In this document: positions 2,975 to 52,598 of the stretch, one piece after another
Numbering within the stretch: the first letter of the stretch is position 1
Layout: each line of letters begins with the position of its first letter
Source of the DNA: an uncultured Chlorobiota bacterium
Lineage (GTDB): Bacteria > Bacteroidota > Ignavibacteria > UBA10030 > UBA6906
Direction: 5' to 3'
DNA length: 64,000 nt
NCBI GenBank assembly: GCA_900696645.1
Contig: CAADGV010000024.1
Span: 64,912 to 128,911, forward strand
The notes under the pieces: generated by a model
Told to the model about the DNA's origin: nothing
What the model saw: only the letters and a program-made list of their open reading frames with translations
The model's database searches: none
Made by a program: the position numbers and the translations under genes

Positions 2975-3811
2975 CTAATACAACACAAGCTCAGGCGAGT
3001 TCGGAATCAATCCCTTCTCAAATCCTCTCTTGAACAACAACTCAAGGGCTTGCTTCCCCTTCTCGCCCATATCAATCGTCAAGTCGCTTACATACATCTT
3101 CACAAACTTCTCGCCGAGCGTGTAGTCAATTCCTCGTCCCCATTGCATAGCGTAGGGAATCGATTCGTCCTGGTGATTGTAGCCGTATGCAATACTTGCC
3201 TTCAAGCCTTCAGAAAGTTTCCTTGCCATCGCTTCGCCTAAATCCTTCCGTGCAACATCAAGTCCGAGGGGAAGAGGCAGCCCGTTGGTTTCTTTCTCCC
3301 AGAATTCGCCAAAGTCGAGAATCTTGTTATAGCCCAGTGATTGGTATGTGATCTGCCCCTCATGAATGAGCAGGCCGGCGTCAACATCGCCGCTATCGAC
3401 TGCTTCCATGATCTTGTCGAACGGCATGTCGATATTGTTGATGCCTTCGGTGAATGTTTTGAAGAGCAGTGTTGCCGTTGTAAGCGGGCCGGGCGTGCCA
3501 ACTGTCTTTCCCTTCAAGTCATTCAGGGACTTGTATTTGCGGGAGATGATCACCGGGCCGTATCCTTCCCCCATGCTTGCGCCGGTTTTCATGATCCAGT
3601 ATTTGTCGGCAACGTAAGGAAACGCATGAGCGGAAATCGCCGTCACTTCAAGTTCTGCTTTCATTGCGCGTTCGTTCAATGACTGAATATCTTCAAGAAG
3701 ATGTTCGATGACGATGCCGTCAAGCTTCACTTTGCCGCTGGCAAGTCCGTAGAACATGAATGCATCGTCGGGGTCGGGACTGTGTCCGACTTTGATTATT
3801 CTCTCTGCCAT
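2975..3811 (-). CDS. futalosine-pathway menaquinone biosynthesis protein, MqnA/MqnD family
   Basis: N-terminal VGHSPDPDDAFMFYGLASGK motif characteristic of MqnA/MqnD; start set at internal ATG 3811 (MAERIIKVGHSP); directly downstream of ubiE/menG on the same strand. Confidence 0.6.
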   Translation of the reverse strand: MAERIIKVGHSPDPDDAFMFYGLASGKVKLDGIVIEHLLEDIQSLNERAMKAELEVTAISAHAFPYVADKYWIMKTGASMGEGYGPVIISRKYKSLNDLKGKTVGTPGPLTTATLLFKTFTEGINNIDMPFDKIMEAVDSGDVDAGLLIHEGQITYQSLGYNKILDFGEFWEKETNGLPLPLGLDVARKDLGEAMARKLSEGLKASIAYGYNHQDESIPYAMQWGRGIDYTLGEKFVKMYVSDLTIDMGEKGKQALELLFKRGFEKGLIPNSPELVLY

Positions 3812-3854
3812 AAGTCTTGTTGATGGTTGAAGGAAATTGTCGAACTGATAGATG

Positions 3855-4547
3855 TTATTTCTTCGCGCCGCAATAAATCGTAACAATGCCGAATGTCAAT
3901 CTCTCCTCTTTCAACTCCGCAAATCCTACCTTCCGCAGGATGTTGAGAAAGTCATTTCCTTCGGGGAACTTCATCACTGTGTCCGGGAGATATGTGTAGG
4001 CTTCCTTGTGTCGGGAAACGATTCTGCCGACAAGCGGAAGAACCGACTTGAAATAGAAAAAATACAGTTGATTGAACGGAAACGTTCCCGGTCGTGAAAA
4101 CTCCAGCACAACAATTTTCCCTCCCGGACGGAGGATGCGGTTCATCTCCGCCAGGCCCTGCTCGAGATGCTCGAAGTTGCGAGCACCGAACGCAACAATC
4201 GCCGCGTCAAAGGAACCCGTCTCGAACCCGAGATGTTCGGCCTCGCCGGTTTGCAACGTAATCGTCGAGTCAAGCCCGCGCTTCTGCAGTTTCGCCCTGC
4301 CGATCTTCAGCATCTCTTCGGCAATATCAACCCCGATCACTTCCTGAGGGTTCAGCCGAAGCGTGGCGATGGCAAAATCTGCCGTTCCTGTTGCAACGTC
4401 GAGAATTCTTCTTGGCCGAATGTCCTTGAGATACTGCACCGCCCTGCGCCGCCAATAGAAATCAATTCCTCCGCTTAACAGGTGGTTGAGAAGATCGTAG
4501 CGATACGCGATAGAATCAAAAAGAGAACGGACGTACTGTTTTTCCAA
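3855..4547 (-). CDS. ubiE: demethylmenaquinone/ubiquinone C-methyltransferase UbiE/MenG
   Basis: SAM-MTase motifs ILDVATGTADFA, RPGGKIVVLEFS; N-terminus YDLLNHLLSGGIDFYWRR typical of UbiE; 230 aa. Confidence 0.8.
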   Translation of the reverse strand: MEKQYVRSLFDSIAYRYDLLNHLLSGGIDFYWRRRAVQYLKDIRPRRILDVATGTADFAIATLRLNPQEVIGVDIAEEMLKIGRAKLQKRGLDSTITLQTGEAEHLGFETGSFDAAIVAFGARNFEHLEQGLAEMNRILRPGGKIVVLEFSRPGTFPFNQLYFFYFKSVLPLVGRIVSRHKEAYTYLPDTVMKFPEGNDFLNILRKVGFAELKEERLTFGIVTIYCGAKK

Positions 4548-4677
4548 TGAAGGGCAAATCCAGATTGTTGAATGGCAAAAGATACGGAAGTTTCAGATTC
4601 GTTCAAACTTCTTCACCTGAGTTTTCTATTTTGCTTCCCGTTGGATATATTGACAAACAGAACATCAAGATATCTGC

Positions 4678-5778
4678 ATGTCAAAGATTACAGTTCATCT
4701 TGCGCAAACTGTCGACCGTTCGTACCGGATTGAAGTGAAGCCGGGGGCGCTTGATAGCCTCGCTGCGTTCATTCTACGCCAACGTCGCGGGTCGAAAGTC
4801 TTTATCATAACTGACTCCAACGTTGAGATGTTGGTGGGAAGAAAGATTCAGAGAAAGATGTATGAAGCGGGTCTCGAGACGCTGCTGCTGAGTTTTCCTG
4901 CAGGCGAGAAGTCAAAGAACCAGCGTATTGTTCATGCTCTGCATACGCAACTCCTTGCCGGTGATATTCGCCGGGATAGCCTCATTGTCGCCCTTGGTGG
5001 CGGCGTTGTGGGGGATGTTGCAGGTTACGTTGCCGCGACAATCTCGAGGGGAGTCGCCTTCATTCAAGTGCCGACAACGCTGCTCTCGCAAGTCGACAGC
5101 AGCGTCGGCGGCAAGGTTGGCATCAATCATCCTCGCGGAAAGAACCTGATCGGAGCATTTCATCAGCCGATGGCGGTATTTGTTGACCCCGATGTGTTGA
5201 GAACCCTGCCGCAACGCGAATTCTGCAGCGGCCTTGCTGAAGTGGTAAAGATTGCCGCCGCTCTTGACAGACGATTGTTTCAGTTTCTTGAACGAAATGC
5301 CCATCGTGTGTCGAAATCAAATCCGAAACTTCTGACAGAGATCATTTCGCGATGTGTTGCGCTCAAGGCGGCTGTTGTCGAGGCGGATGAGTTCGAATCA
5401 GGATTGCGAAGGTCGCTCAATCTCGGCCACACAATCGGCCACGCCATTGAATCGTCAACGAACTATTCCATCAATCACGGGGAAGCTGTGGCTATCGGCC
5501 TTGTTACGGAATCGACGGTTGCTCATCGGATGGGATTGCTTTCTTCACGTGAACTTGACAGACTCATCTCGCTTCTGAAAAAGCTGGGCCTGCCGACAGG
5601 TATGCCGCAGCTTCGCAACACAACGAAGTTTTTCTCTTCATTGTCTGCGGACAAGAAATCCGTCGGGGGGCGTGCAAAGTACGTGTTGCTCTCCGCAATC
5701 GGAAGCTGTGTTATAGGTGTCGACGTGTCGACGACTCTTGTTCAGAACGTGGTGATGGAAAGCAGGCGAGTTCGCTGA
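4678..5778 (+). CDS. aroB: 3-dehydroquinate synthase
   Basis: near-identical blocks to E. coli AroB (LGGGVVGDVAGYVAAT, VPTTLLSQVDSSVGGKVGINHPRGKNLIGAFHQP). Confidence 0.9.
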   Translation: MSKITVHLAQTVDRSYRIEVKPGALDSLAAFILRQRRGSKVFIITDSNVEMLVGRKIQRKMYEAGLETLLLSFPAGEKSKNQRIVHALHTQLLAGDIRRDSLIVALGGGVVGDVAGYVAATISRGVAFIQVPTTLLSQVDSSVGGKVGINHPRGKNLIGAFHQPMAVFVDPDVLRTLPQREFCSGLAEVVKIAAALDRRLFQFLERNAHRVSKSNPKLLTEIISRCVALKAAVVEADEFESGLRRSLNLGHTIGHAIESSTNYSINHGEAVAIGLVTESTVAHRMGLLSSRELDRLISLLKKLGLPTGMPQLRNTTKFFSSLSADKKSVGGRAKYVLLSAIGSCVIGVDVSTTLVQNVVMESRRVR

Positions 5779-7232
5779 TGATTATTGTGTCGATAACGGG
5801 ACCCGGAATGAAGGATGCGCTTGGACAGATTGCCGCCTCATCTCAATATGCGGACATGTTCGAATTGCGTCTTGATATGATTCAGGAGCCGCCTCTCGGC
5901 ATGCTGATGGCGGCAACCGGCAAGCCGATTATTGCCACATGTCGACCTGATTGGGAGGGCGGTGAATTTCGTGAAACGGAATCAGAACGGGCCGAAATTC
6001 TTCATGCAGCAGCGGAACTCGGCGCAGCGTACGTTGATATTGAACTGAATGCAGATGCAGGAATTATACGCAGACTTCACGGCGACGGGCGTCGTCTCAT
6101 TCTCTCCTATCATCACAACGGGAAAGGCAAGCTTGATATAGCAAGAATGTACAGGCGCATGAAATCGCCTCACGCACATGTATTGAAGCTTGCATACACT
6201 GCGGAAGATTGTGCTGATATAAAGTACGCATTCGAGTTTCTCCAACTTGCCAAACAGGACAAGCAAAGAGCTATAGCTATTGCCATGGGAGAATTCGGCG
6301 AGCCGACGAGAATTCTCTACAAGAAATTCGGAGGATGGGCAACGTACGCATCGGCGGGTATTGGCCTAAGTGCCGCTGCCGGACAAATTCCCGCTGCCGA
6401 ATTGAGAGAACTGTATCGATCTGAAAGAATCTCCGGCAAGACAAAGGTCTTCGGAGTGGTCGGTAATCCGTTGAAGCAAAGTAAAGGTATTTACCTGCAC
6501 AATCCGCTTTATCAGAAAGCTAAGAAGGATGCCGTGTATTGCAGATTTCAAGTGAGGGATCTGAATTCGTACATGAAGCGTGTGGCGCCGGTGTTGAACG
6601 GTTTCAGTGTTACAATTCCTCACAAGCAATCGATCATCAAGTATCTGGATCGAATTGATCCGACAGCTAAAGCCATCGGTGCCGTGAATACAGTTATGCG
6701 CAAAGCGGGCAGGTTGTATGGAACAAACACGGACGCTCCGGGCGCTCTTGATGCCATAGAAAACGTACTGAAGGTCAAAGGAAAGAGCATGCTGATTGCC
6801 GGGGCCGGCGGAGCGGCTCGTGCAATTGCATATGAAGCAAAACAACGCGGAGCAAAGATTTTCTTGACTAACAGAACCGAATCAACAGGACGGAAACTTG
6901 CTACGGAATTCAACGTGGATTTTGTTTCAAAGACCGAGCTTCTTCGTGCCGCACGAAAGGGTGTACGATATGATATTATTGTCAACGCCACATCAGTAGG
7001 TATGACGCCGCATGTGAATGCATCACCTCTTCCCAAATCTATTCTCAAAAAGGCAATCGTGTTCGATGCAGTGTACAATCCTCCTATGACGAAATTGTTA
7101 CGGGATGCAAAGAATGCAGGCGCTATGATTGTTCAAGGGACAGAGATGTATTTCAATCAGGCGGCGCTGCAGTTTGAATTGTACGCGGGCGTGAAGCCCG
7201 GAATCTCAACAATGAGGAAAATCCTTTCATAA
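5778..7232 (+). CDS. bifunctional 3-dehydroquinate dehydratase (type I) / shikimate dehydrogenase fusion
   Basis: 484 aa; N half resembles type I DHQase; C half has shikimate dehydrogenase signatures (VVGNPLKQSKGIYLHNPLY, Rossmann GAGGAARAIAYEA); 4-nt overlap with aroB stop. Confidence 0.75.
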   Translation: MIIVSITGPGMKDALGQIAASSQYADMFELRLDMIQEPPLGMLMAATGKPIIATCRPDWEGGEFRETESERAEILHAAAELGAAYVDIELNADAGIIRRLHGDGRRLILSYHHNGKGKLDIARMYRRMKSPHAHVLKLAYTAEDCADIKYAFEFLQLAKQDKQRAIAIAMGEFGEPTRILYKKFGGWATYASAGIGLSAAAGQIPAAELRELYRSERISGKTKVFGVVGNPLKQSKGIYLHNPLYQKAKKDAVYCRFQVRDLNSYMKRVAPVLNGFSVTIPHKQSIIKYLDRIDPTAKAIGAVNTVMRKAGRLYGTNTDAPGALDAIENVLKVKGKSMLIAGAGGAARAIAYEAKQRGAKIFLTNRTESTGRKLATEFNVDFVSKTELLRAARKGVRYDIIVNATSVGMTPHVNASPLPKSILKKAIVFDAVYNPPMTKLLRDAKNAGAMIVQGTEMYFNQAALQFELYAGVKPGISTMRKILS

Positions 7233-7240
7233 GGCGGGAA

Positions 7241-7543
7241 ATGCTGAAACACATTGTCATGTGGAAGTTCAAGGAAACGGCGGAAAGGACAAGCAAAGAG
7301 GAGAATCTGCGGAAGGCAAAAGAGCTTCTTGACTTGCTGCCGTCGCAGATTCCTGCCATCGGCGGCTTTGAAGTCGGGATTGATATACTGCATTCCGACT
7401 CGTCTTACGATTTGGTATTGAATTCGTCTTTCAAAAACAGAGACGATCTTGTCGCATATCAGACGCATCCGTCGCATGTGAAAGTGGTCGAGTTTCTTCG
7501 CAAAGTGCAAATTGGGAAAGCCGTCGTTGATTACGTCGTGTAG
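7241..7543 (+). CDS. Dabb-family stress-responsive alpha+beta barrel protein
   Basis: 100 aa, MLKHIVMWKFKE...AYQTHPSHVKVVEF pattern of the Dabb (dimeric alpha/beta barrel) family; embedded inside the aro operon. Confidence 0.6.
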   Translation: MLKHIVMWKFKETAERTSKEENLRKAKELLDLLPSQIPAIGGFEVGIDILHSDSSYDLVLNSSFKNRDDLVAYQTHPSHVKVVEFLRKVQIGKAVVDYVV

Positions 7544-8806
7544 ATGATTCGAGAAATCCATCCATTGAGGAGGCCGGTCAATGCCGGTATTCACGTGCCC
7601 GGCTCGAAAAGCCTGACAAACAGGGCACTCATCTGCGCAGCTTTGGCGAAAGGCGAATCTACGCTCAACAATGCATCGGACAGCGACGATACATCGCTGA
7701 TGCGAAACGGGCTGAATCAGCTTGGCGTACTCGTTCGAAAGAAGGATGATACACTCATTGTCGAAGGCACGGGCGGGAAAGTGTACGCGCCCAAATTCCC
7801 CATTCCCGTCGGTAACGCGGGAACGACACTACGGTTTCTGCTCTCGTTAGCCGCGCTTGCCCCAGGTAAGACAGTTCTCGACGGGAGTGAGCGGATGGCT
7901 GCGCGTCCAATTGATGATTTGACGAGTTCCCTTGCGGCACTCGGCACGGAGGTCGGGTTCTCGCCTCATCAAGCACGCTACGTCGTAAATGGCGGCTCGT
8001 TCGTCGGTGGCAAAACTAAACTTGATGCCTCAAGAAGTTCTCAGTTTCTGTCGTCGCTGTTGATGGTGGCACCGTATGCAACCGAGGACGTACAAATCGA
8101 AGTGGCGGGAGAGATTTCTTCTGCTCCGTATGTTCAGCTCACGTTGCAGGTTATGCGTGAGTTCGGGGTGAATGTGGAGCATTTAGCAGGCGACTGCTTT
8201 GTGGTCAGGGCAGGCCAGAGATATATCCCGACATCATTTGCAGTAGAGGCGGATGCATCGAGCGCGACGTACTTCCTTGCGGCAGCGGCACTGTGTAGCG
8301 GAGACATCCTTGTAGAGGGTGTCAGACGTGATACGTTGCAAGCGGATGCAAACTTTGTCAACATATTGCATCAGATGGGATGTAGGATCGAGCATGAGGA
8401 AAGGGGCGTTAGACTCAATAGCAACGGACGGCTTCAGGGTGTTGATGTTAGCATGAATTCCATGCCCGATGCCGTGCCAACGCTTGTTGTAACAGCATTG
8501 TTCGCCGAAGGGACGACGCGTATCAGAAACATTTCCCATCTTCGTCATAAGGAATCTGACAGGCTTCATGCAATGGAGACTGAACTGAAAAAACTCGGCG
8601 CTGAAATCAGTGTGTATGATGATCGGGTAGATATCAATCCCTCGATATTGTCGGGTGGTGTTCTGGATACGTACGATGATCATCGTTTGGCGATGGCCTT
8701 CGCGCTAATCGGTTTGAAGGTAGATGGCGTAAAGATAGATAATCCGGCTTGCGTGAGGAAATCTTTTCCGCAATTCTGGACGGAATTCGACAAGCTATAC
8801 TGTTAA
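7544..8806 (+). CDS. aroA: 3-phosphoshikimate 1-carboxyvinyltransferase (EPSP synthase)
   Basis: VPGSKSLTNRALICAALA N-terminal signature, 420 aa, contiguous with aroC. Confidence 0.9.
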   Translation: MIREIHPLRRPVNAGIHVPGSKSLTNRALICAALAKGESTLNNASDSDDTSLMRNGLNQLGVLVRKKDDTLIVEGTGGKVYAPKFPIPVGNAGTTLRFLLSLAALAPGKTVLDGSERMAARPIDDLTSSLAALGTEVGFSPHQARYVVNGGSFVGGKTKLDASRSSQFLSSLLMVAPYATEDVQIEVAGEISSAPYVQLTLQVMREFGVNVEHLAGDCFVVRAGQRYIPTSFAVEADASSATYFLAAAALCSGDILVEGVRRDTLQADANFVNILHQMGCRIEHEERGVRLNSNGRLQGVDVSMNSMPDAVPTLVVTALFAEGTTRIRNISHLRHKESDRLHAMETELKKLGAEISVYDDRVDINPSILSGGVLDTYDDHRLAMAFALIGLKVDGVKIDNPACVRKSFPQFWTEFDKLYC

Positions 8807-8812
8807 AAAGAC

Positions 8813-10168
8813 ATGGCTGGAAACACATACGGAACACAATTCAGAATCACAACGTTTGGCGAAAGCCACGGCCGTGCAATCGGCGTTGTTATGGATGGCG
8901 TACGGCCCGGACTGCCGATTGATACGGATTTCATTCAGAAGGAACTCGATCGTCGCCGCCCCGGACAAAGCAAGGTCACAACTGCGCGCAATGAGTCTGA
9001 TGCAGTTGAAATTCTCAGCGGGGTATTTGAAGGAAAAACTACCGGCACGCCGATCTGCATGATCATCTGGAACAAAGACCAGCAGTCAAAGCCGTATGAA
9101 AAGATCAAGGAGTTGTTTCGTCCCGGTCATGCCGGATACACGTATCTCGCCAAGTACGGAGTAAGCGATTATCGGGGCGGCGGACGTTCATCAGGCAGGG
9201 AAACAGCATCGCGGGTTGCCGCGGGAGCTGTTGCCAAATCTCTCCTCGCGAAGCGGGGCATTCATATTCTTGCGTACACAAAAGAAGTCGCGGGCATCGG
9301 AGGTCGAAGGATCAATCCCGACTTCATCGAGAAGAATCCACTTCGCGCCGCCGATCCTGAAGCAGCAAGAAAAATGGAGCGCAAAATCTTACAAGCGAAA
9401 ACAGACGGCGACTCGGTCGGCGGAATTGTTGAAATAATTGTGAAGAATGTTCCCGTCGGGCTCGGCGAGCCGGTGTTCGACAAGCTCGAAGCAGATCTCG
9501 CGAAAGCGCTTATGTCGATCGGGGCGATCAAGGGATTTGAAGTAGGGAATGGCTTTGAGGCTGCGCGCCTAAACGGGAGTGAGAACAACGACTCGATGTA
9601 TTTCGATAAGAAATCCCGTCGTGTACGCACAAGAACAAACAATGCCGGCGGTATTTCCGGTGGCATTTCCAACGGCGAAGACATTGTTCTGCGAATCGCC
9701 GTTAAACCTCCATCATCCATCCTCAAGAAACAGCGAACAGTCACGGTGAAAGGAAGGGCAGCGACAATTTCCGTTGAAGGCCGCCACGATCCGTGCATCT
9801 GTCCCCGCGTAGTGCCCGTTGCCGAATCAATGGTAGCCCTCACGCTACTCGACCATCTTACCCGCCAACAAATCTTGAGAAGCAAAACGACCTTGCAGGC
9901 GTTGAGGGATGATATCGATCTGCTTGACCATAACATCCTTTTGTTGATTGCCGAGCGGCAGAGATTTGTCGAGCAGGTTGGAATTCTGAAAAAGAAAAAA
10001 GGCAGGAACATTCACGATGCAGGGCGTGAGAAACAGATTCTTGCAAAACAGCTTGCTGCAGGCACCGCACTCGGGCTGGACCAAGAATTCGTGAGAGAAA
10101 TTTGTTCGGCTATCTTCAATCTTGCAAAATCGACACAGCGAAAGCTCAACGCCGGCTTGTTGAAGTAA
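8813..10168 (+). CDS. aroC: chorismate synthase fused to a C-terminal AroQ-type chorismate mutase domain
   Basis: N-terminal MAGNTYGTQFRITTFGESHGRAIG matches AroC; last ~90 aa (LQALRDDIDLLDHNILLLIAERQRFVEQVGILKKKKG...REKQIL) match the AroQ chorismate mutase helix pattern; 451 aa vs ~360 for AroC alone. Confidence 0.85.
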   Translation: MAGNTYGTQFRITTFGESHGRAIGVVMDGVRPGLPIDTDFIQKELDRRRPGQSKVTTARNESDAVEILSGVFEGKTTGTPICMIIWNKDQQSKPYEKIKELFRPGHAGYTYLAKYGVSDYRGGGRSSGRETASRVAAGAVAKSLLAKRGIHILAYTKEVAGIGGRRINPDFIEKNPLRAADPEAARKMERKILQAKTDGDSVGGIVEIIVKNVPVGLGEPVFDKLEADLAKALMSIGAIKGFEVGNGFEAARLNGSENNDSMYFDKKSRRVRTRTNNAGGISGGISNGEDIVLRIAVKPPSSILKKQRTVTVKGRAATISVEGRHDPCICPRVVPVAESMVALTLLDHLTRQQILRSKTTLQALRDDIDLLDHNILLLIAERQRFVEQVGILKKKKGRNIHDAGREKQILAKQLAAGTALGLDQEFVREICSAIFNLAKSTQRKLNAGLLK

Positions 10169-10376
10169 GGGAGAGCAGGAAAGTATTACGGCACACTATT
10201 CGCCACCTGTAAGTCGGCGGCGTTTGTTTTTTCGGGATTTCGCTACGGAATTTCACACGATTACGCAAATGTGTCGGTTGCAACGTGTAATACCCGGAAG
10301 AAAGTCTCGAATTTCCACCCGCTGCAAGATGTAATTTCTACAAATTTCCATACAGAGAGTTGGCACGCGAGTATCT

Positions 10377-43184: not shown

Positions 43185-46100
43185 CTAAAACCCGTTAGGG
43201 TTTTCCTTTCCCTGTATCACGATGAGCTTCAGTGTCTTCGTCGCGCCGAATTCCGGCAACTCGATGTGGGCGATGTACACACCGCTGCCAACTTGCAGCC
43301 CGAATTCATTCTGTAAATCCCACTCAACAAACTGCGAGCCTTCTGCTCCGTCGTCCTTCACCAGCGTTCGTACAAGCTGCCCCGCAAGATTGAAGACGCG
43401 GATCGTCGCCTTCGCAGGAAGCCGGGTGAACGTCACGCGGCGTTTCGATAATCCTGTCGGCGTAACGGCTTCTCCGTAGTAGGGATTGGGAACAACGTTG
43501 ATTGCAGCAATATCAGCGCGGATTTGATTCTTATCGTTGAAAACAGGGCCTTGCGGCGTTATTTCTTTGATGTCACCGTGCCTGATTTCATGGAATTTGA
43601 TGAACTTGATCACAGTTCCTACAGGAGGAGGTAGGCCGTCGTTGTCTTTGTCGGCGATCTGAATTCCCCACAAAGCATTCCCTTGCTCATCGGGACTTTG
43701 TGATGCTCTGAAGACTTCCGTCAGAAGGCCTGATACTCCTATCGAATCATTTCCGCCAACCGGATAGCGAATATCCGTAACGTGAATCGGCTCGAAGATC
43801 TTGAACAGCGTGTCCGTGTACAGCACGCCGTACGGCGTCACGTTCCACGTGTCGGGAGTATTACCCGAATCCCTAAACGACGCAATTACCTGAACCGGAA
43901 CATCATCCGGTCCGCGCCCGACATCCCACACCGAAAACGGAACCTTCACTGCCTTCGATTGGATATTGAGAACAATCATCCGCACAGCATAACTTCCCAC
44001 ACCGTCAAACCTGATCTCATAATCCCGCTGCGTAGTGCCGACACCGTTCAACGAGCGAAGTGTTCGCCGCTGACTGAGAACCGTGTAGTTCGAATTCGGA
44101 TTGTCGGGGCCGTACGCGTTGTTGCCCCGTTCATCCAGCACATAGCGCAACCCTACGGGCGGAATGCCGATTGTGACATCAAATCCCCCTTCTGCAACCT
44201 TATAAGGAACCCTGCCGCTGAGGTCGGTAATGTTGGAGTAGATGGATTTTCCGCTTGTGGCGTTGATGATGCTCCACTTGTACGATTTGCTTGATGTTGT
44301 TGTGTCGAAACGAACATGATACGAGCTACCAGTTTGCCCCCGCGGATTGTAGATAACAGGAACAACAACCGCGTCGCTGTTGCCGACGATATTCTTGACG
44401 AGAACCGTATCTCCAACATTGTAGGGGTAGAGGGCTCCAGGCGTTTTTGATTGGGGGATGACAGTGATAATCTCAGGGGCACTTTCTATACTGCGGATGA
44501 TGGTTGTGTTATCCGTTGTGTAGTTGTAGGCCGTTACCGCAAAATGGTACTGCTGGCCGTTGACAAGCGATCTGTTCCAGATTGCATCCTGAGTGATCAG
44601 CAGACTCCGCTGAATGCCGCTATCAGTTCCGTATTGTACAGGCCTGAAGTAGATATCGCCTGCCTGTTCATCAAACACTTCTTGAGAAATGGTTTTGACA
44701 TTATTTGCGAGATCAAACGTTACAAGTCGCTTCGCGTTCGTCAGATCCGTTGCACCATCGGGGACCTGATATATATTGTATCCCTCAAACCTGTATCCTC
44801 CGAAGAGGAGAGGGACTTCGGTTTCGGCAATGCTCGCCGAATCCAAACTCCAATCCAGCAATACCTGCCGGTCAAGTCCGAATGCCTTGACCTTCGGCGG
44901 GGCCGGGGCTTTCGGCTGATTGAAGCCGTTGTTGTAAGCGAGTTGCGCCGCTTTGTCGTTGTACTTCATGACTTTGATGCTGGAGATGTTGTCGGTTCCC
45001 AGCCCGCCGACAACAGCAAGCACAACCTCCTGTGTGTCGCCCAACGCCATTGTGAAGGGACCCGACGAGAGCGTAACTTCCCTGTCTCCGGGAAGCAGCG
45101 GCGATCCATCAAGCCAGCCGTAATTCAGAACCGGGTCGCCGTGAGCCCAATACTTCGAGGCTGTTTGAGTTGTCGGATTGATAAGCGGAGCAGGATCCGG
45201 CGGCCCGACAGGTGACGGCGGCAACCCGCGGAGTACCTGATACCATCCATTCGCCGCAAAATTCCCGCCTCCCGGTGGTTGATAGCGTGAACCATTTCGT
45301 ACATGCCGGTCGTAATAAACGAATGATGTCATCGGGAGATTGATGTAGCCCGGACCTTTTGTTTTCAGATTGACGATGGCAAAATCCGACGCGTCATCAA
45401 TTCCATTCTTATTCCGATCCTGACCTGCAACACCGGGAACTACAGGGCCATGAATGAAATCAAAACCAACTGCCGGAGGAGGAAGGAGGAAGTTGTTGAA
45501 CAAACGATCTGTTACGGCAGCGTTGTACACATAGCCAAGATTCAGCAGCGTATCGCAAGCGGCATAATCGTCGGTGGCGTCGCCGATATCCGGGTCCGAC
45601 ATTTGCGCGATGTACATGCTGTCGATCCGGGCCGCGGCAGACGTTGATGACAAGCCTTTGTAAATGAGCCGGAACCGCTTGTACACGACGTTCGCCAATG
45701 CGTCTGTACGGTTGTAGCCCCAGACTGTTCCCTGCAACTCCATACCGACGGGCTGTGAAGAGAACGGCCGCGAAGCAATCACGTCGTTACATACATACCA
45801 CAATACCATATCGGCATCGGCGTAACCGGGAGTCTCGCCATCGAGTTTGCCATTGCGGTTCAGGTCTTCGCCGGGGTCAAGCACACCGTTGCGGTTGACA
45901 TCTTCGCCCCAATCAAGCACGCCATTGTTTGCGCCGACAAGCTGGCCGTTCTGATCAAGATAGCCGGTGTCATAAAACGGAGCGCCGAATTCCCACGGCC
46001 ATTCCGCCCAATCCTTTTGGTAGGCGTTCCGAAGCGCGATGATGTCGGCTGTTGTCACGTTAGTTGGGATTTTTCGGTAGGTTTCTGCCGCATCCTGCCG

Positions 46101-46529
46101 CAAATCTGTTTTACGAAAATCGCGCCGAATTCTATACATGCGAACAGTACTGTCATTAGGATTCTGCACGCTGCTTGTCCGAAGTCCGAGAATTGCTCCC
46201 TGCCGCATTCCGCTTGTGAAGTACTGTCCGTTCACGTGAAGCCGGTTGATGTTGCCGTCACGCAATCTTCCTCCCCAAATCAGTCCCGAGGCAAACACAA
46301 TGTTCGATGTTCCTTTCGGGTAGAACATCCCTGCGCCGGAGAACAGGCCGCCGGGATATTCCTGATTGCCGTTTGAATTGTACCATCCGATCATTCTGTT
46401 GATGTTCAACGGAACAATTGTCGGAGTGCCGGCAATCCCCTCAGTCCCCGTCGGCAGAAATGGTTTGTCTTGCGAGATAAGAGTGAACGGCAGGATGAAC
46501 ACTACAGCTACAACAAGTAATCGCTTCAT
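43185..46529 (-). CDS. large secreted protein (1114 aa) with a T9SS C-terminal sorting domain
   Basis: signal peptide MKRLLVVAVVFILPF; calcium-binding-like D-rich repeats (DWGEDVNRNGVLDPGEDLNRNGKLDGE); C-terminal ~80 aa match the Por/T9SS CTD pattern (ATIRVFNLAGQLVRTL...GSGVYIAHIEL...KLIVIQ). Confidence 0.7.
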   Translation of the reverse strand: MKRLLVVAVVFILPFTLISQDKPFLPTGTEGIAGTPTIVPLNINRMIGWYNSNGNQEYPGGLFSGAGMFYPKGTSNIVFASGLIWGGRLRDGNINRLHVNGQYFTSGMRQGAILGLRTSSVQNPNDSTVRMYRIRRDFRKTDLRQDAAETYRKIPTNVTTADIIALRNAYQKDWAEWPWEFGAPFYDTGYLDQNGQLVGANNGVLDWGEDVNRNGVLDPGEDLNRNGKLDGETPGYADADMVLWYVCNDVIASRPFSSQPVGMELQGTVWGYNRTDALANVVYKRFRLIYKGLSSTSAAARIDSMYIAQMSDPDIGDATDDYAACDTLLNLGYVYNAAVTDRLFNNFLLPPPAVGFDFIHGPVVPGVAGQDRNKNGIDDASDFAIVNLKTKGPGYINLPMTSFVYYDRHVRNGSRYQPPGGGNFAANGWYQVLRGLPPSPVGPPDPAPLINPTTQTASKYWAHGDPVLNYGWLDGSPLLPGDREVTLSSGPFTMALGDTQEVVLAVVGGLGTDNISSIKVMKYNDKAAQLAYNNGFNQPKAPAPPKVKAFGLDRQVLLDWSLDSASIAETEVPLLFGGYRFEGYNIYQVPDGATDLTNAKRLVTFDLANNVKTISQEVFDEQAGDIYFRPVQYGTDSGIQRSLLITQDAIWNRSLVNGQQYHFAVTAYNYTTDNTTIIRSIESAPEIITVIPQSKTPGALYPYNVGDTVLVKNIVGNSDAVVVPVIYNPRGQTGSSYHVRFDTTTSSKSYKWSIINATSGKSIYSNITDLSGRVPYKVAEGGFDVTIGIPPVGLRYVLDERGNNAYGPDNPNSNYTVLSQRRTLRSLNGVGTTQRDYEIRFDGVGSYAVRMIVLNIQSKAVKVPFSVWDVGRGPDDVPVQVIASFRDSGNTPDTWNVTPYGVLYTDTLFKIFEPIHVTDIRYPVGGNDSIGVSGLLTEVFRASQSPDEQGNALWGIQIADKDNDGLPPPVGTVIKFIKFHEIRHGDIKEITPQGPVFNDKNQIRADIAAINVVPNPYYGEAVTPTGLSKRRVTFTRLPAKATIRVFNLAGQLVRTLVKDDGAEGSQFVEWDLQNEFGLQVGSGVYIAHIELPEFGATKTLKLIVIQGKENPNGF

Positions 46530-50746: not shown

Positions 50747-50834
50747 GCGGCAGCATTGCAACTGAGCCGCGCATTCGCTATTCTTCTTGCAACATCCCCT
50801 CACTGTACGCTTTCAGTTCTTTCCTCAATCATCT

Positions 50835-52598
50835 ATGTCAACGAACAACACAGCCGAGCTTGCCGCGCAAATAGTCTTGAAAGCATTTGAAGCCTTTGAT
50901 GCCGCATTCCGCTCCATCACGCGCCGGGCAAAGCGCCGGTTCGAACAGCGCGACTGGCAGGGAGGGAGGCATGATTCAATCGAGCGGCTTGATTCGTACG
51001 AGCGTTCGCTCGATCAAGTCGTCAGGAAGCTTGATACTTCAATCGGGTCGCCGGCGCGTGAAGCGTCGTTGTGGATTGCTGCCAAGCCCAAGTTTGCTGC
51101 GCTTCTGGCACTGCGCCACGACATCGGCCGCGGAGAAACGTACTTTAATTCTGTAACGAGAAGGATGCTGCGAACAGTCGGACTGAACCGTGATGTCGAA
51201 TTCTTCTACCTCCATCCGAAACCGCACGCGCCGTACGCCGAGGAGTCGGTGTACAGAAGGTACACGAAATCTGATGACACCGAAGTGTTGGTGAAAAGCA
51301 TCCTTGATGATTGTTCCTTCAGTGTTGCATTCGAGAATCTTGATCGTGACGCTGGCTTGGTCGCGCAGGAAATCGACCTGCATCTCTGGCCGGTTATCGG
51401 CGTCGAGAACTCCGGCACAATCGATGTCGTGAAAGCAATCTTCTATCGGAACAAGGAAGCGTACATCGTCGGGAGGATTAGCGCTGCCGACAAATCCTTC
51501 CCGCTTATCATTCCACTTGTCAACGGCGGGTCGGGAATTTATGTTGACACGGTTCTTTTGGAGAGCGCGGAGGCCGGTATCGTTTTCAGCTTTGCCTATT
51601 CCTATTTCTTTGTCGATATCGAACGATATGATGCGCTGATTCAATTTCTTCGTTCGATAGTACCGCAATCGCAAACGTCGGAATTGTACATCTCGCTCGG
51701 CTACAATCATCACGGCAAAACGGGATTCTATCGTGATCTTCACAGATACGTTCACGTCTCGAAAGAACAATTCGTGATTGCGCCCGGCTTGGAAGGAGCG
51801 GTCATGAATGTGTTCACGCTGCCGAATTACGGCTTCGTGTTCAAAGTCATTAAAGATCGTCCCTGCTTTCTTCGATCGAACAATCAAACCTCTAAGGTCA
51901 TCACACAGGAAAGAGTCCGCTACCAGTACGGATTTGTTTCACACCGCGACCCGGCAGGAAGAATGGTAAATACTCAGGAATTTGAGAATCTGCGCTTCAG
52001 AAAGAAGCGTTTCGCAAGCCAGGTGTTGGATGAATTTCAACAGGCGGTGACAAGAAACGTGACGATTCTTGAAGACTATGTCATCATCAAGCATGTTTAT
52101 GTGCAAAGAAAGGTAGTCCCTTTGCCTCTGTATTTTCGCAACGAAAGAAATCCTGAAGCTATTCGTCATGTGTTGATTGATTTCGGGTACTTTCTGAAGG
52201 ATCTGGCTGCGAGCGGTGTTTTCCCCAGCGATTTGTTCAACACGTGGAACTACGGCGTTACGCAATGGGGGCGTGTTGTTCTGTACGATTACGACGATGT
52301 GTTGCCCATCGAACGCATCAGGTTTCGCGAGAAGCCGCAGCCCCGGGACGAATTGCAGGAAACCGAGCCTGAGGAAAACTGGATTCTTGCAACCGAAGAT
52401 GATTTTTTCATGGATGAGATCGAGCGCTACTCCGGCATTCCACATCCGCTCAGAGGTGTGTTCAAGTCGGTTCACGGCGACCTCTACAAACTCACATTCT
52501 GGAAGAATCTGACCGAGAATCTTCGCAAGGGCGTGATCTTTGACGTCATTCCATACGATAGAGTCAAGCGCTTCCGGGAGCATGAGAGAATTATCTAA
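50835..52598 (+). CDS. aceK: isocitrate dehydrogenase kinase/phosphatase homologue
   Basis: multiple blocks matching E. coli AceK (FEQRDWQGG, AIFYRNKEAYIVGR, VFKVIKDRP, GRMVNTQEFENL, HVYVQRKVVPL, WGRVVLYDYDD); start set at ATG 50835. Confidence 0.8.
   Translation: MSTNNTAELAAQIVLKAFEAFDAAFRSITRRAKRRFEQRDWQGGRHDSIERLDSYERSLDQVVRKLDTSIGSPAREASLWIAAKPKFAALLALRHDIGRGETYFNSVTRRMLRTVGLNRDVEFFYLHPKPHAPYAEESVYRRYTKSDDTEVLVKSILDDCSFSVAFENLDRDAGLVAQEIDLHLWPVIGVENSGTIDVVKAIFYRNKEAYIVGRISAADKSFPLIIPLVNGGSGIYVDTVLLESAEAGIVFSFAYSYFFVDIERYDALIQFLRSIVPQSQTSELYISLGYNHHGKTGFYRDLHRYVHVSKEQFVIAPGLEGAVMNVFTLPNYGFVFKVIKDRPCFLRSNNQTSKVITQERVRYQYGFVSHRDPAGRMVNTQEFENLRFRKKRFASQVLDEFQQAVTRNVTILEDYVIIKHVYVQRKVVPLPLYFRNERNPEAIRHVLIDFGYFLKDLAASGVFPSDLFNTWNYGVTQWGRVVLYDYDDVLPIERIRFREKPQPRDELQETEPEENWILATEDDFFMDEIERYSGIPHPLRGVFKSVHGDLYKLTFWKNLTENLRKGVIFDVIPYDRVKRFREHERII

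Follow-up and report, generated by a model that had tools for sequence, protein, structure and literature searches.

Can one polypeptide both complete the synthesis of chorismate and rearrange it to prephenate? The question is raised by an open reading frame (ORF) in a 64,000-nucleotide stretch of an uncultured Chlorobiota contig (CAADGV010000024.1, positions 64,912 to 128,911; hereafter the window), in which a gene for chorismate synthase (AroC) appears to carry a C-terminal chorismate mutase (CM) domain of the AroQ family. The ORF, designated aroC.aroQ, lies at 8813..10168 on the + strand, starts with ATG and encodes 451 amino acids (aa) plus a stop codon, and the same protein has been assembled independently in many samples. 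We infer that its product is most likely a bifunctional chorismate synthase/chorismate mutase that runs two consecutive steps of aromatic biosynthesis. Both activities are predicted on the basis of the domain identities, the catalytic residues, the fold, the conservation across a large family and the operon context.

An earlier reading of this DNA, made from its letters alone (the sequence-only reading), had described the ORF as 451 aa long, about 90 aa longer than stand-alone AroC, and had assigned its first ~360 aa to AroC and its tail to AroQ. The same coordinates, N-terminus and tail were recovered here, and both assignments held. The Pfam model Chorismate_synt (PF01264) matched residues 10-349 (8840..9859, +) along profile positions 1-326 of 327 with an E value of 3.4e-144 (480 bits against a cut-off of 27), and the NCBIfam equivalog models NF003793 (483 bits, cut-off 321) and TIGR00033 (465 bits, cut-off 212) agreed with this assignment. 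The CM_2 model (PF01817, gathering cut-off 27) matched residues 364-442 (9902..10138, +) along profile positions 1-79 of 80, scoring 64.1 bits within the full-length protein and, when the tail was searched alone, 68.6 bits (E value 5e-19). Both Pfam matches are far beyond chance. The stretches GESHG, GGGRSSGRET and GRHDPC, the PROSITE signatures of chorismate synthase, are present in the ORF and invariant across 55 family members. Chorismate_synt is the sole domain accompanying CM_2 in the Pfam results: no prephenate dehydratase (PDT), prephenate dehydrogenase (PDH), 3-deoxy-D-arabinoheptulosonate 7-phosphate (DAH7P) synthase, cyclohexadienyl dehydratase (CDT) or ACT domain was found in the ORF, and the NCBIfam models PRK10622, PRK11199 and PRK12595 matched CM segments only, far under their cut-offs. 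Since unfused AroC proteins in related genomes are 356-375 aa long, the ~90 aa of extra length is genuine. The G+C content at third codon positions is equal between the two halves of the gene (0.545 and 0.551).

The active-site pattern that the sequence-only reading had recognized in the tail was confirmed. In a phmmer search of solved structures, the tail aligned with E. coli chorismate mutase (EcCM, 1ecm) over 90 residues without gaps (E value 1.5e-8). With a constant offset of +354, the EcCM residues Arg11, Arg28, Lys39, Glu52 and Gln88 correspond to R365 (codon 9905-9907, +), R382 (9956-9958), K393 (9989-9991), E406 (10028-10030) and Q442 (10136-10138), and Asp48 and Arg51 correspond to D402 and R405, while Ser84 is changed to A438. 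Among 55 close family members, R365, R382, K393, R405 and Q442 are each kept in every sequence, D402 is kept in 54, and E406 is kept in 52, with Gln in the other three. In a wider alignment of 31 junction sequences, consisting of the window protein and 30 distant fusion representatives at 50% clustering, the equivalents of Arg11, Arg28, Lys39 and Glu52 are present in all 31 and that of Gln88 in 28. The closest non-identical relatives of the fusion protein are only ~80% identical to it in protein sequence, and the mean identity of the 55 full-length family members to the window protein is 78% in the AroC part and 56% in the CM part. That the CM part has diverged to 56% while its active-site residues stay invariant or nearly so points to purifying selection on the active site, and the overall pattern of conservation in the tail is that expected of a working one.

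In an AlphaFold2 monomer model built on 55 family sequences, the last AroC helix spans residues 333-355 and is followed, after a break of ~4 residues, by the CM helices 360-396, 403-420 and 424-446, which are predicted with confidence (predicted local distance difference test, pLDDT, values of ~80-89). The junction, residues 350-363 (9860..9901, +), thus comprises the end of the last AroC helix, this break and the start of CM helix 1, without a long linker. It shows no indels in the close family alignment, whereas the spacing varies by ~19 residues in distant fusions. In a Foldseek search with the model, the 28 best PDB matches were all chorismate synthases (E values 1e-18 to 3e-26). The tail superposed on 1ecm_A with a template modelling (TM) score of 0.96 and a root-mean-square deviation of 0.8 A, and on 2d8d with TM scores of 0.93-0.94. 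Overall, its matches to CM structures had TM scores of 0.89-0.96 at 29-32% identity, compared with 0.72-0.81 at 18-22% identity for the isochorismate-pyruvate lyase PchB. No PDB entry spanning both domains was among the listed Foldseek matches.

The fusion extends far beyond the window. A junction-spanning query (residues 290-451) searched against 1.84 billion representatives at 50% identity gave 325 matches at E <= 1e-10, and the best 150 of these included ~30 full-length proteins of 419-486 aa that match across the junction at 30-42% identity. All ten of the distant fusions examined with Pfam have Chorismate_synt followed by CM_2, and four of them are longer. In the cluster to which the window protein itself belongs, names such as 'Bacteroidetes bacterium' and 'Sphingobacteriales bacterium CHB3' are given, and the named distant members come from Clostridia, Anaerovoracaceae and Myxococcota metagenome-assembled genomes (MAGs). 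Longer forms occur in Clostridia. P0228, a 732-aa protein from Anaerovoracaceae in a cluster of 93 members, has the order AroC-CM-PDT, and MAG proteins of 852-866 aa (P0135/P0327, 866 aa; P0219 and P0244, 852 aa; P0260, 863 aa) have the order AroC-CM-AroE-AroK. The former covers three consecutive steps, from 5-enolpyruvylshikimate 3-phosphate (EPSP) to phenylpyruvate, and the latter combines four activities at non-consecutive steps. This extension of the polypeptide in other lineages suggests that the CM domain acts as a pathway enzyme.

The fusion joints differ among lineages, as the distance from the GRHD motif to the Arg11 equivalent ranges from 36 to 55 residues across the 31 junctions. 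The AroC domain of the window protein is 47-60% identical to unfused AroC of Bacteroidota and Nitrososphaeria, compared with 34-52% to most other fusion lineages, and the CM domains of different fusion lineages are only 24-37% identical to one another. Other Bacteroidota (Parabacteroides, Prevotellaceae and Weeksellaceae) have plain AroC of 356-367 aa. This ranking of similarities, rather than a tree, suggests several independent fusions or repeated loss.

We propose that the N-terminal 350 residues would convert EPSP to chorismate as an AroC dependent on flavin mononucleotide, and that the C-terminal 90 residues, as an EcCM-type AroQ, would rearrange chorismate to prephenate, the first committed step to Phe and Tyr. 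AroC is oligomeric, typically a tetramer, and AroQ enzymes of the EcCM type are obligate intertwined dimers, whose active site is made by two chains, with Arg11 coming from the partner. Because an AroQ active site needs the Arg11 of a partner chain, the tails of two AroC protomers would have to pair, presumably forming a six-helix CM dimer within the AroC oligomer. The likely benefit would be obligatory co-expression, a fixed 1:1 stoichiometry and the co-localization of the last step of the common pathway with the first step towards Phe and Tyr. The gene sits at the end of what appears to be a translationally compact aro operon, and true channelling is not assumed in this proposal.

Several observations weigh against the bifunctional assignment. 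The mean pLDDT of the whole fusion model is moderate (66.7), and the interdomain break predicted by AlphaFold2 is only ~4 residues long, and two tails would have to pair within the AroC oligomer. The position of EcCM Ser84, which like Asp48 is a second-shell ligand, is Ala in 52 of the 55 close family members, whereas 28 of the 31 sequences in the wider junction alignment have Ser there. More than 20 NCBIfam chorismate mutase models match the tail, all under their own cut-offs, with the best being TIGR01791 (53.5 bits against 66.95). These models define sub-clades, so the tail lies outside every curated sub-clade, which by itself does not take it out of the AroQ class.

A more elaborate form of the bifunctional reading, which we regard as unlikely, is that the AroC oligomer would act as a scaffold holding two AroQ dimers at the chorismate exits, with the tail as the cell's only CM, and would serve as a branch-point device by channelling or reciprocal allostery. 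If true, this device would replace the feedback-regulated P-protein, T-protein or DAH7P synthase-CM (DAH7PS-CM) solutions of other bacteria, and a recurrent selective advantage would lie behind the apparently repeated origin of the fusion in Ignavibacteria-like Bacteroidota, Clostridia and Myxococcota. The mechanism put forward in the sequence-only reading, true channelling or branch-point control, in which chorismate from AroC would be passed preferentially to the tethered CM and flux biased to Phe and Tyr, seems improbable. Channelling would fit the consecutive nature of the steps, the very short linker and the persistence of the fusion through deep divergence and its recurrence in several lineages. 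However, the futalosine route to menaquinone begins at chorismate, and the PF02621 and MenG/UbiE genes neighbouring the operon therefore suggest a probable continuing need for free chorismate beyond the synthesis of Phe and Tyr. Moreover, in the sole natural CM fusion examined for channelling, CM-CDT, crystal structures and knockout-mixing kinetics revealed none, nor any catalytic gain by tethering (PMC10520331).

The tail could also be chiefly a ligand-sensing regulator that binds chorismate or prephenate and modulates AroC, with CM catalysis being incidental, a view that we consider rather improbable. Its precedent is the CM-like domains on DAH7PS of Bacillus, Listeria and Geobacillus, which act allosterically (PMC12202928). 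Such DAH7PS-linked domains keep the AroQ fold, and three of them (5gmu, 5go2 and 5j6f) were among the Foldseek matches of the tail, so retained catalytic residues are compatible with a sensor role. Nevertheless, every lineage examined retains the full catalytic set, and the AroC-CM-PDT fusions (P0228) would have no rationale unless their own polypeptide made prephenate. A further point against this explanation is that AroC is not known to be under allosteric regulation. Regulatory and catalytic roles of the tail can coexist.

It is very improbable that the tail catalyses another reaction of the AroQ family, such as that of a PchB-like isochorismate-pyruvate lyase or a 4-amino-4-deoxychorismate mutase. 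AroQ-fold enzymes of either kind share most of the active-site residues, PchB structures turned up in the fold search, and the isochorismate lyase model NF005475 matched the tail weakly. Its score, however, was 21-23 bits against a cut-off of 126, compared with 35-53 bits for the CM models of NCBIfam, and the fold matches to PchB were poorer than those to CM. In addition, the operon encodes the common shikimate pathway, and no isochorismate synthase or pab/pap genes were recorded in the ~84 kb of the contig that were examined.

The weakest explanation, that a frameshift or misassembly merged aroC with a separate downstream aroQ gene, is hardly credible even though adjacent, separate aroC and CM-containing genes occur naturally in Nitrososphaeraceae (6-13 nt apart). 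The same 451-aa protein appears in 59 indexed blocks of independent assemblies, with contigs reaching 223 kb, and the named MAGs L007, L008, L009 and L010 carry the fused ORF. Of the 120 best clusters formed at 90% identity (69-100% identity), 119 have both Pfam domains in one ~450-aa protein, and the sole exception is a 400-aa truncation. Cluster members named 'chorismate mutase' (108 aa) and 'chorismate synthase' (366 aa) were considered as natural split genes and rejected, as they are N-terminally truncated fragments at contig ends that still span the AroC-CM junction. The recurrence of the fused protein refutes the artefact, and the frameshift that the sequence-only reading had named as a way in which its proposal could fail is thereby excluded.

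How does the bifunctional AroC-CM protein compare with known AroQ fusions? The documented ones are CM-PDT, CM-PDH, the TyrA-AroQ-PheA-ACT protein of Archaeoglobus, DAH7PS-CM in either order and the exported CM-CDT (PMC10520331, PMC1173090, PMC12202928); chorismate synthase is not mentioned as an AroQ fusion partner in these three papers. In every AroQ fusion found described, the partner is either a downstream enzyme (PDT, PDH or CDT) or DAH7PS, the first enzyme of the pathway. The E. coli P-protein (PheA: CM-PDT-ACT) and T-protein (TyrA: CM-PDH) likewise join a cytoplasmic EcCM-type (AroQ alpha-like) CM to the enzyme of an adjacent step, and the tail of the window protein aligns gap-free with the CM domain of the P-protein (1ecm), with the same catalytic residues. 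In those proteins, however, an N-terminal CM is followed by the next enzyme of the pathway, whereas in the window protein a C-terminal CM is attached to AroC, the enzyme of the step before it. The clostridial AroC-CM-PDT protein resembles a P-protein with AroC put in front.

In DAH7PS-CM, AroQ is likewise attached to an enzyme of the common pathway. Its CM is N-terminal in Bacillus, Listeria and Geobacillus, and C-terminal, as in the fusion described here, in Porphyromonas, Prevotella and Bacteroides, which are Bacteroidia of the same broad phylum (Bacteroides thetaiotaomicron aroA-aroQ is listed in PMC1173090 and Porphyromonas gingivalis DAH7PS-CM in PMC12202928). DAH7PS-CM differs in that it involves the first enzyme of the pathway, its two steps are non-consecutive and its control is allosteric or inter-domain, while the present fusion joins the last enzyme of the common pathway to the consecutive step. 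The CM-CDT and CDT-CM proteins are likewise recently recognized natural fusions of AroQ with a neighbouring pathway enzyme (work of the Kast laboratory, PMC10520331). Both activities of CM-CDT have been demonstrated; it is of the AroQ gamma type, exported, monomeric and extremely rare, being known from nine species (PMC10520331). Unlike CM-CDT, the AroC-CM fusion is an EcCM-like, cytoplasmic protein that is abundantly represented in metagenomes.

The Nitrososphaeraceae, a family of ammonia-oxidizing archaea that includes Ca. Nitrosocosmicus agrestis, provide an unfused counterpart. Two of their loci (L015 and L038) have the same order of aroA, aroC and a CM domain, but in separate ORFs, with the CM joined to a class I/II aminotransferase, and their unfused AroC is 47-55% identical to the AroC domain of the window protein. 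A genome scan, in which query residues 1-426 to 1-447 were matched, had initially indicated archaeal fusions in this family. These candidates were rejected because the aroC ORFs end after 365-375 aa and the rest of the match lies in the separate downstream CM-aminotransferase gene. That gene (L015 2465-3841; L038 9123-10652) encodes 458-509 aa with an N-terminal CM_2 domain scoring 47-52 bits and PF00155 at E values of 1e-59 to 1e-61, and it is possibly a chorismate mutase/prephenate aminotransferase fusion.

The sequence-only reading had also stated that this architecture was not known as a described one. The part concerning the literature stands, in that no description of an AroC-CM fusion was found in full-text literature, a coverage from which subscription journals are largely absent. 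However, the fusion is common in public data, occurs in several lineages and is already displayed with both domains in precomputed Pfam annotation. It therefore represents an undescribed partner and orientation for familiar domains and a familiar type of event, the fusion of pathway neighbours, and is unsurprising to a specialist. Uncultured lineages carry the AroC-CM fusion in abundance, and its annotation systematically falls short. The NCBI and JGI entries for the fusion proteins, including every named distant member, read just 'chorismate synthase', so that automated pathway reconstruction of such MAGs may score CM as missing and wrongly infer auxotrophy for Phe and Tyr. Aromatic metabolism branches chiefly at chorismate, and the fusion is a natural system in which to ask whether tethering at this point shifts the partitioning of flux. 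The same question is relevant to the metabolic engineering of aromatics derived from Phe and Tyr.

The fusion gene is the last of a compact, same-strand cluster with the order aroB-aroD.aroE-(Dabb)-aroA-aroC.CM. The first gene, aroB (3-dehydroquinate synthase; 4678..5778, +; PF01761 and PF24621), is conserved upstream in L008, L010 and L011. Its stop codon is overlapped by 1 nt by the start of an aroD.aroE fusion (5778..7232, +), which encodes a 484-aa protein with type I dehydroquinase and shikimate dehydrogenase domains (PF01487, PF08501 and PF01488; TIGR00507, 236 bits against 200) and is conserved in L007, L008, L010 and L011. This protein scores 195 bits against the cut-off of 598 of NF006802, the equivalog model of bifunctional AroD/AroE, and being so far under it places the protein in a lineage different from the curated family. 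Between aroD.aroE and aroA, an ORF for a 100-aa Dabb-domain protein (stress-responsive alpha/beta barrel; 7241..7543, +; PF07876, E value 3e-24; no NCBIfam family matched) lies 1 nt before aroA; the window and L008 have it, and L007, L010 and L011 lack it at this position. The aroA gene (7544..8806, +; PF00275, E value 4e-120) encodes EPSP synthase, which makes the substrate of the AroC domain, and ends 6 nt before the fusion ORF.

This order is shared by the named MAGs L007, L008, L010 and L011, whose labels are Ignavibacteriales, Bacteroidota and 'Chitinophagales' and across which AroC.CM is the most conserved member of the operon (73-80% identity compared with 49-63% for the other operon genes). 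Downstream, the next gene encodes an unrelated ABC transporter and begins after a 208-nt gap. A hairpin followed by a T-run at 10200-10232 was considered as a terminator and set aside, as it is no better than shuffled sequence (z 0.58) and was not flagged by a terminator scan. In the ~84 kb of the contig that were examined, no further chorismate mutase is recorded, nor are genes for PDT, PDH, DAH7P synthase, shikimate kinase or the trp pathway. In L008 and L010, the ~460-nt gap that follows aroB and precedes aroDE was considered as a site for shikimate kinase; it holds a small lipoprotein-like ORF, and no aroK is evident there by reading alone, without a family search.

On the opposite side of the intergenic region 4548-4677, two genes run divergently from the aro operon. 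One is the PF02621 gene (MqnA/MqnD family, of futalosine-type menaquinone synthesis; 2975-3886, -), for which the gene caller of the contig puts the start later, giving 278 aa, and for which no NCBIfam model matched to assign it to MqnA or MqnD. The other encodes a MenG/UbiE methyltransferase (3855-4547, -), and the two overlap by 32 nt in the ORF listing. L011 keeps this divergent arrangement, and L008 keeps part of it. A likely chorismate-consuming pathway thus shares this intergenic region with chorismate synthesis.

Three further features of the surrounding DNA were recorded. Proteins with the Por_Secre_tail domain of the type IX secretion system (T9SS) are encoded nearby and fit the Fibrobacterota-Chlorobiota-Bacteroidota (FCB) group. 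The ORF at 43185-46529 (-) encodes a 1114-aa protein that has no Pfam family on record, though it is carried on at least 24 contigs. AceK is mainly proteobacterial, and the ORF at 50787-52598 (+) encodes a homologue of this isocitrate dehydrogenase kinase/phosphatase, with the AceK_regulatory and AceK_kinase domains, in an apparently Ignavibacteria-like Bacteroidota genome.

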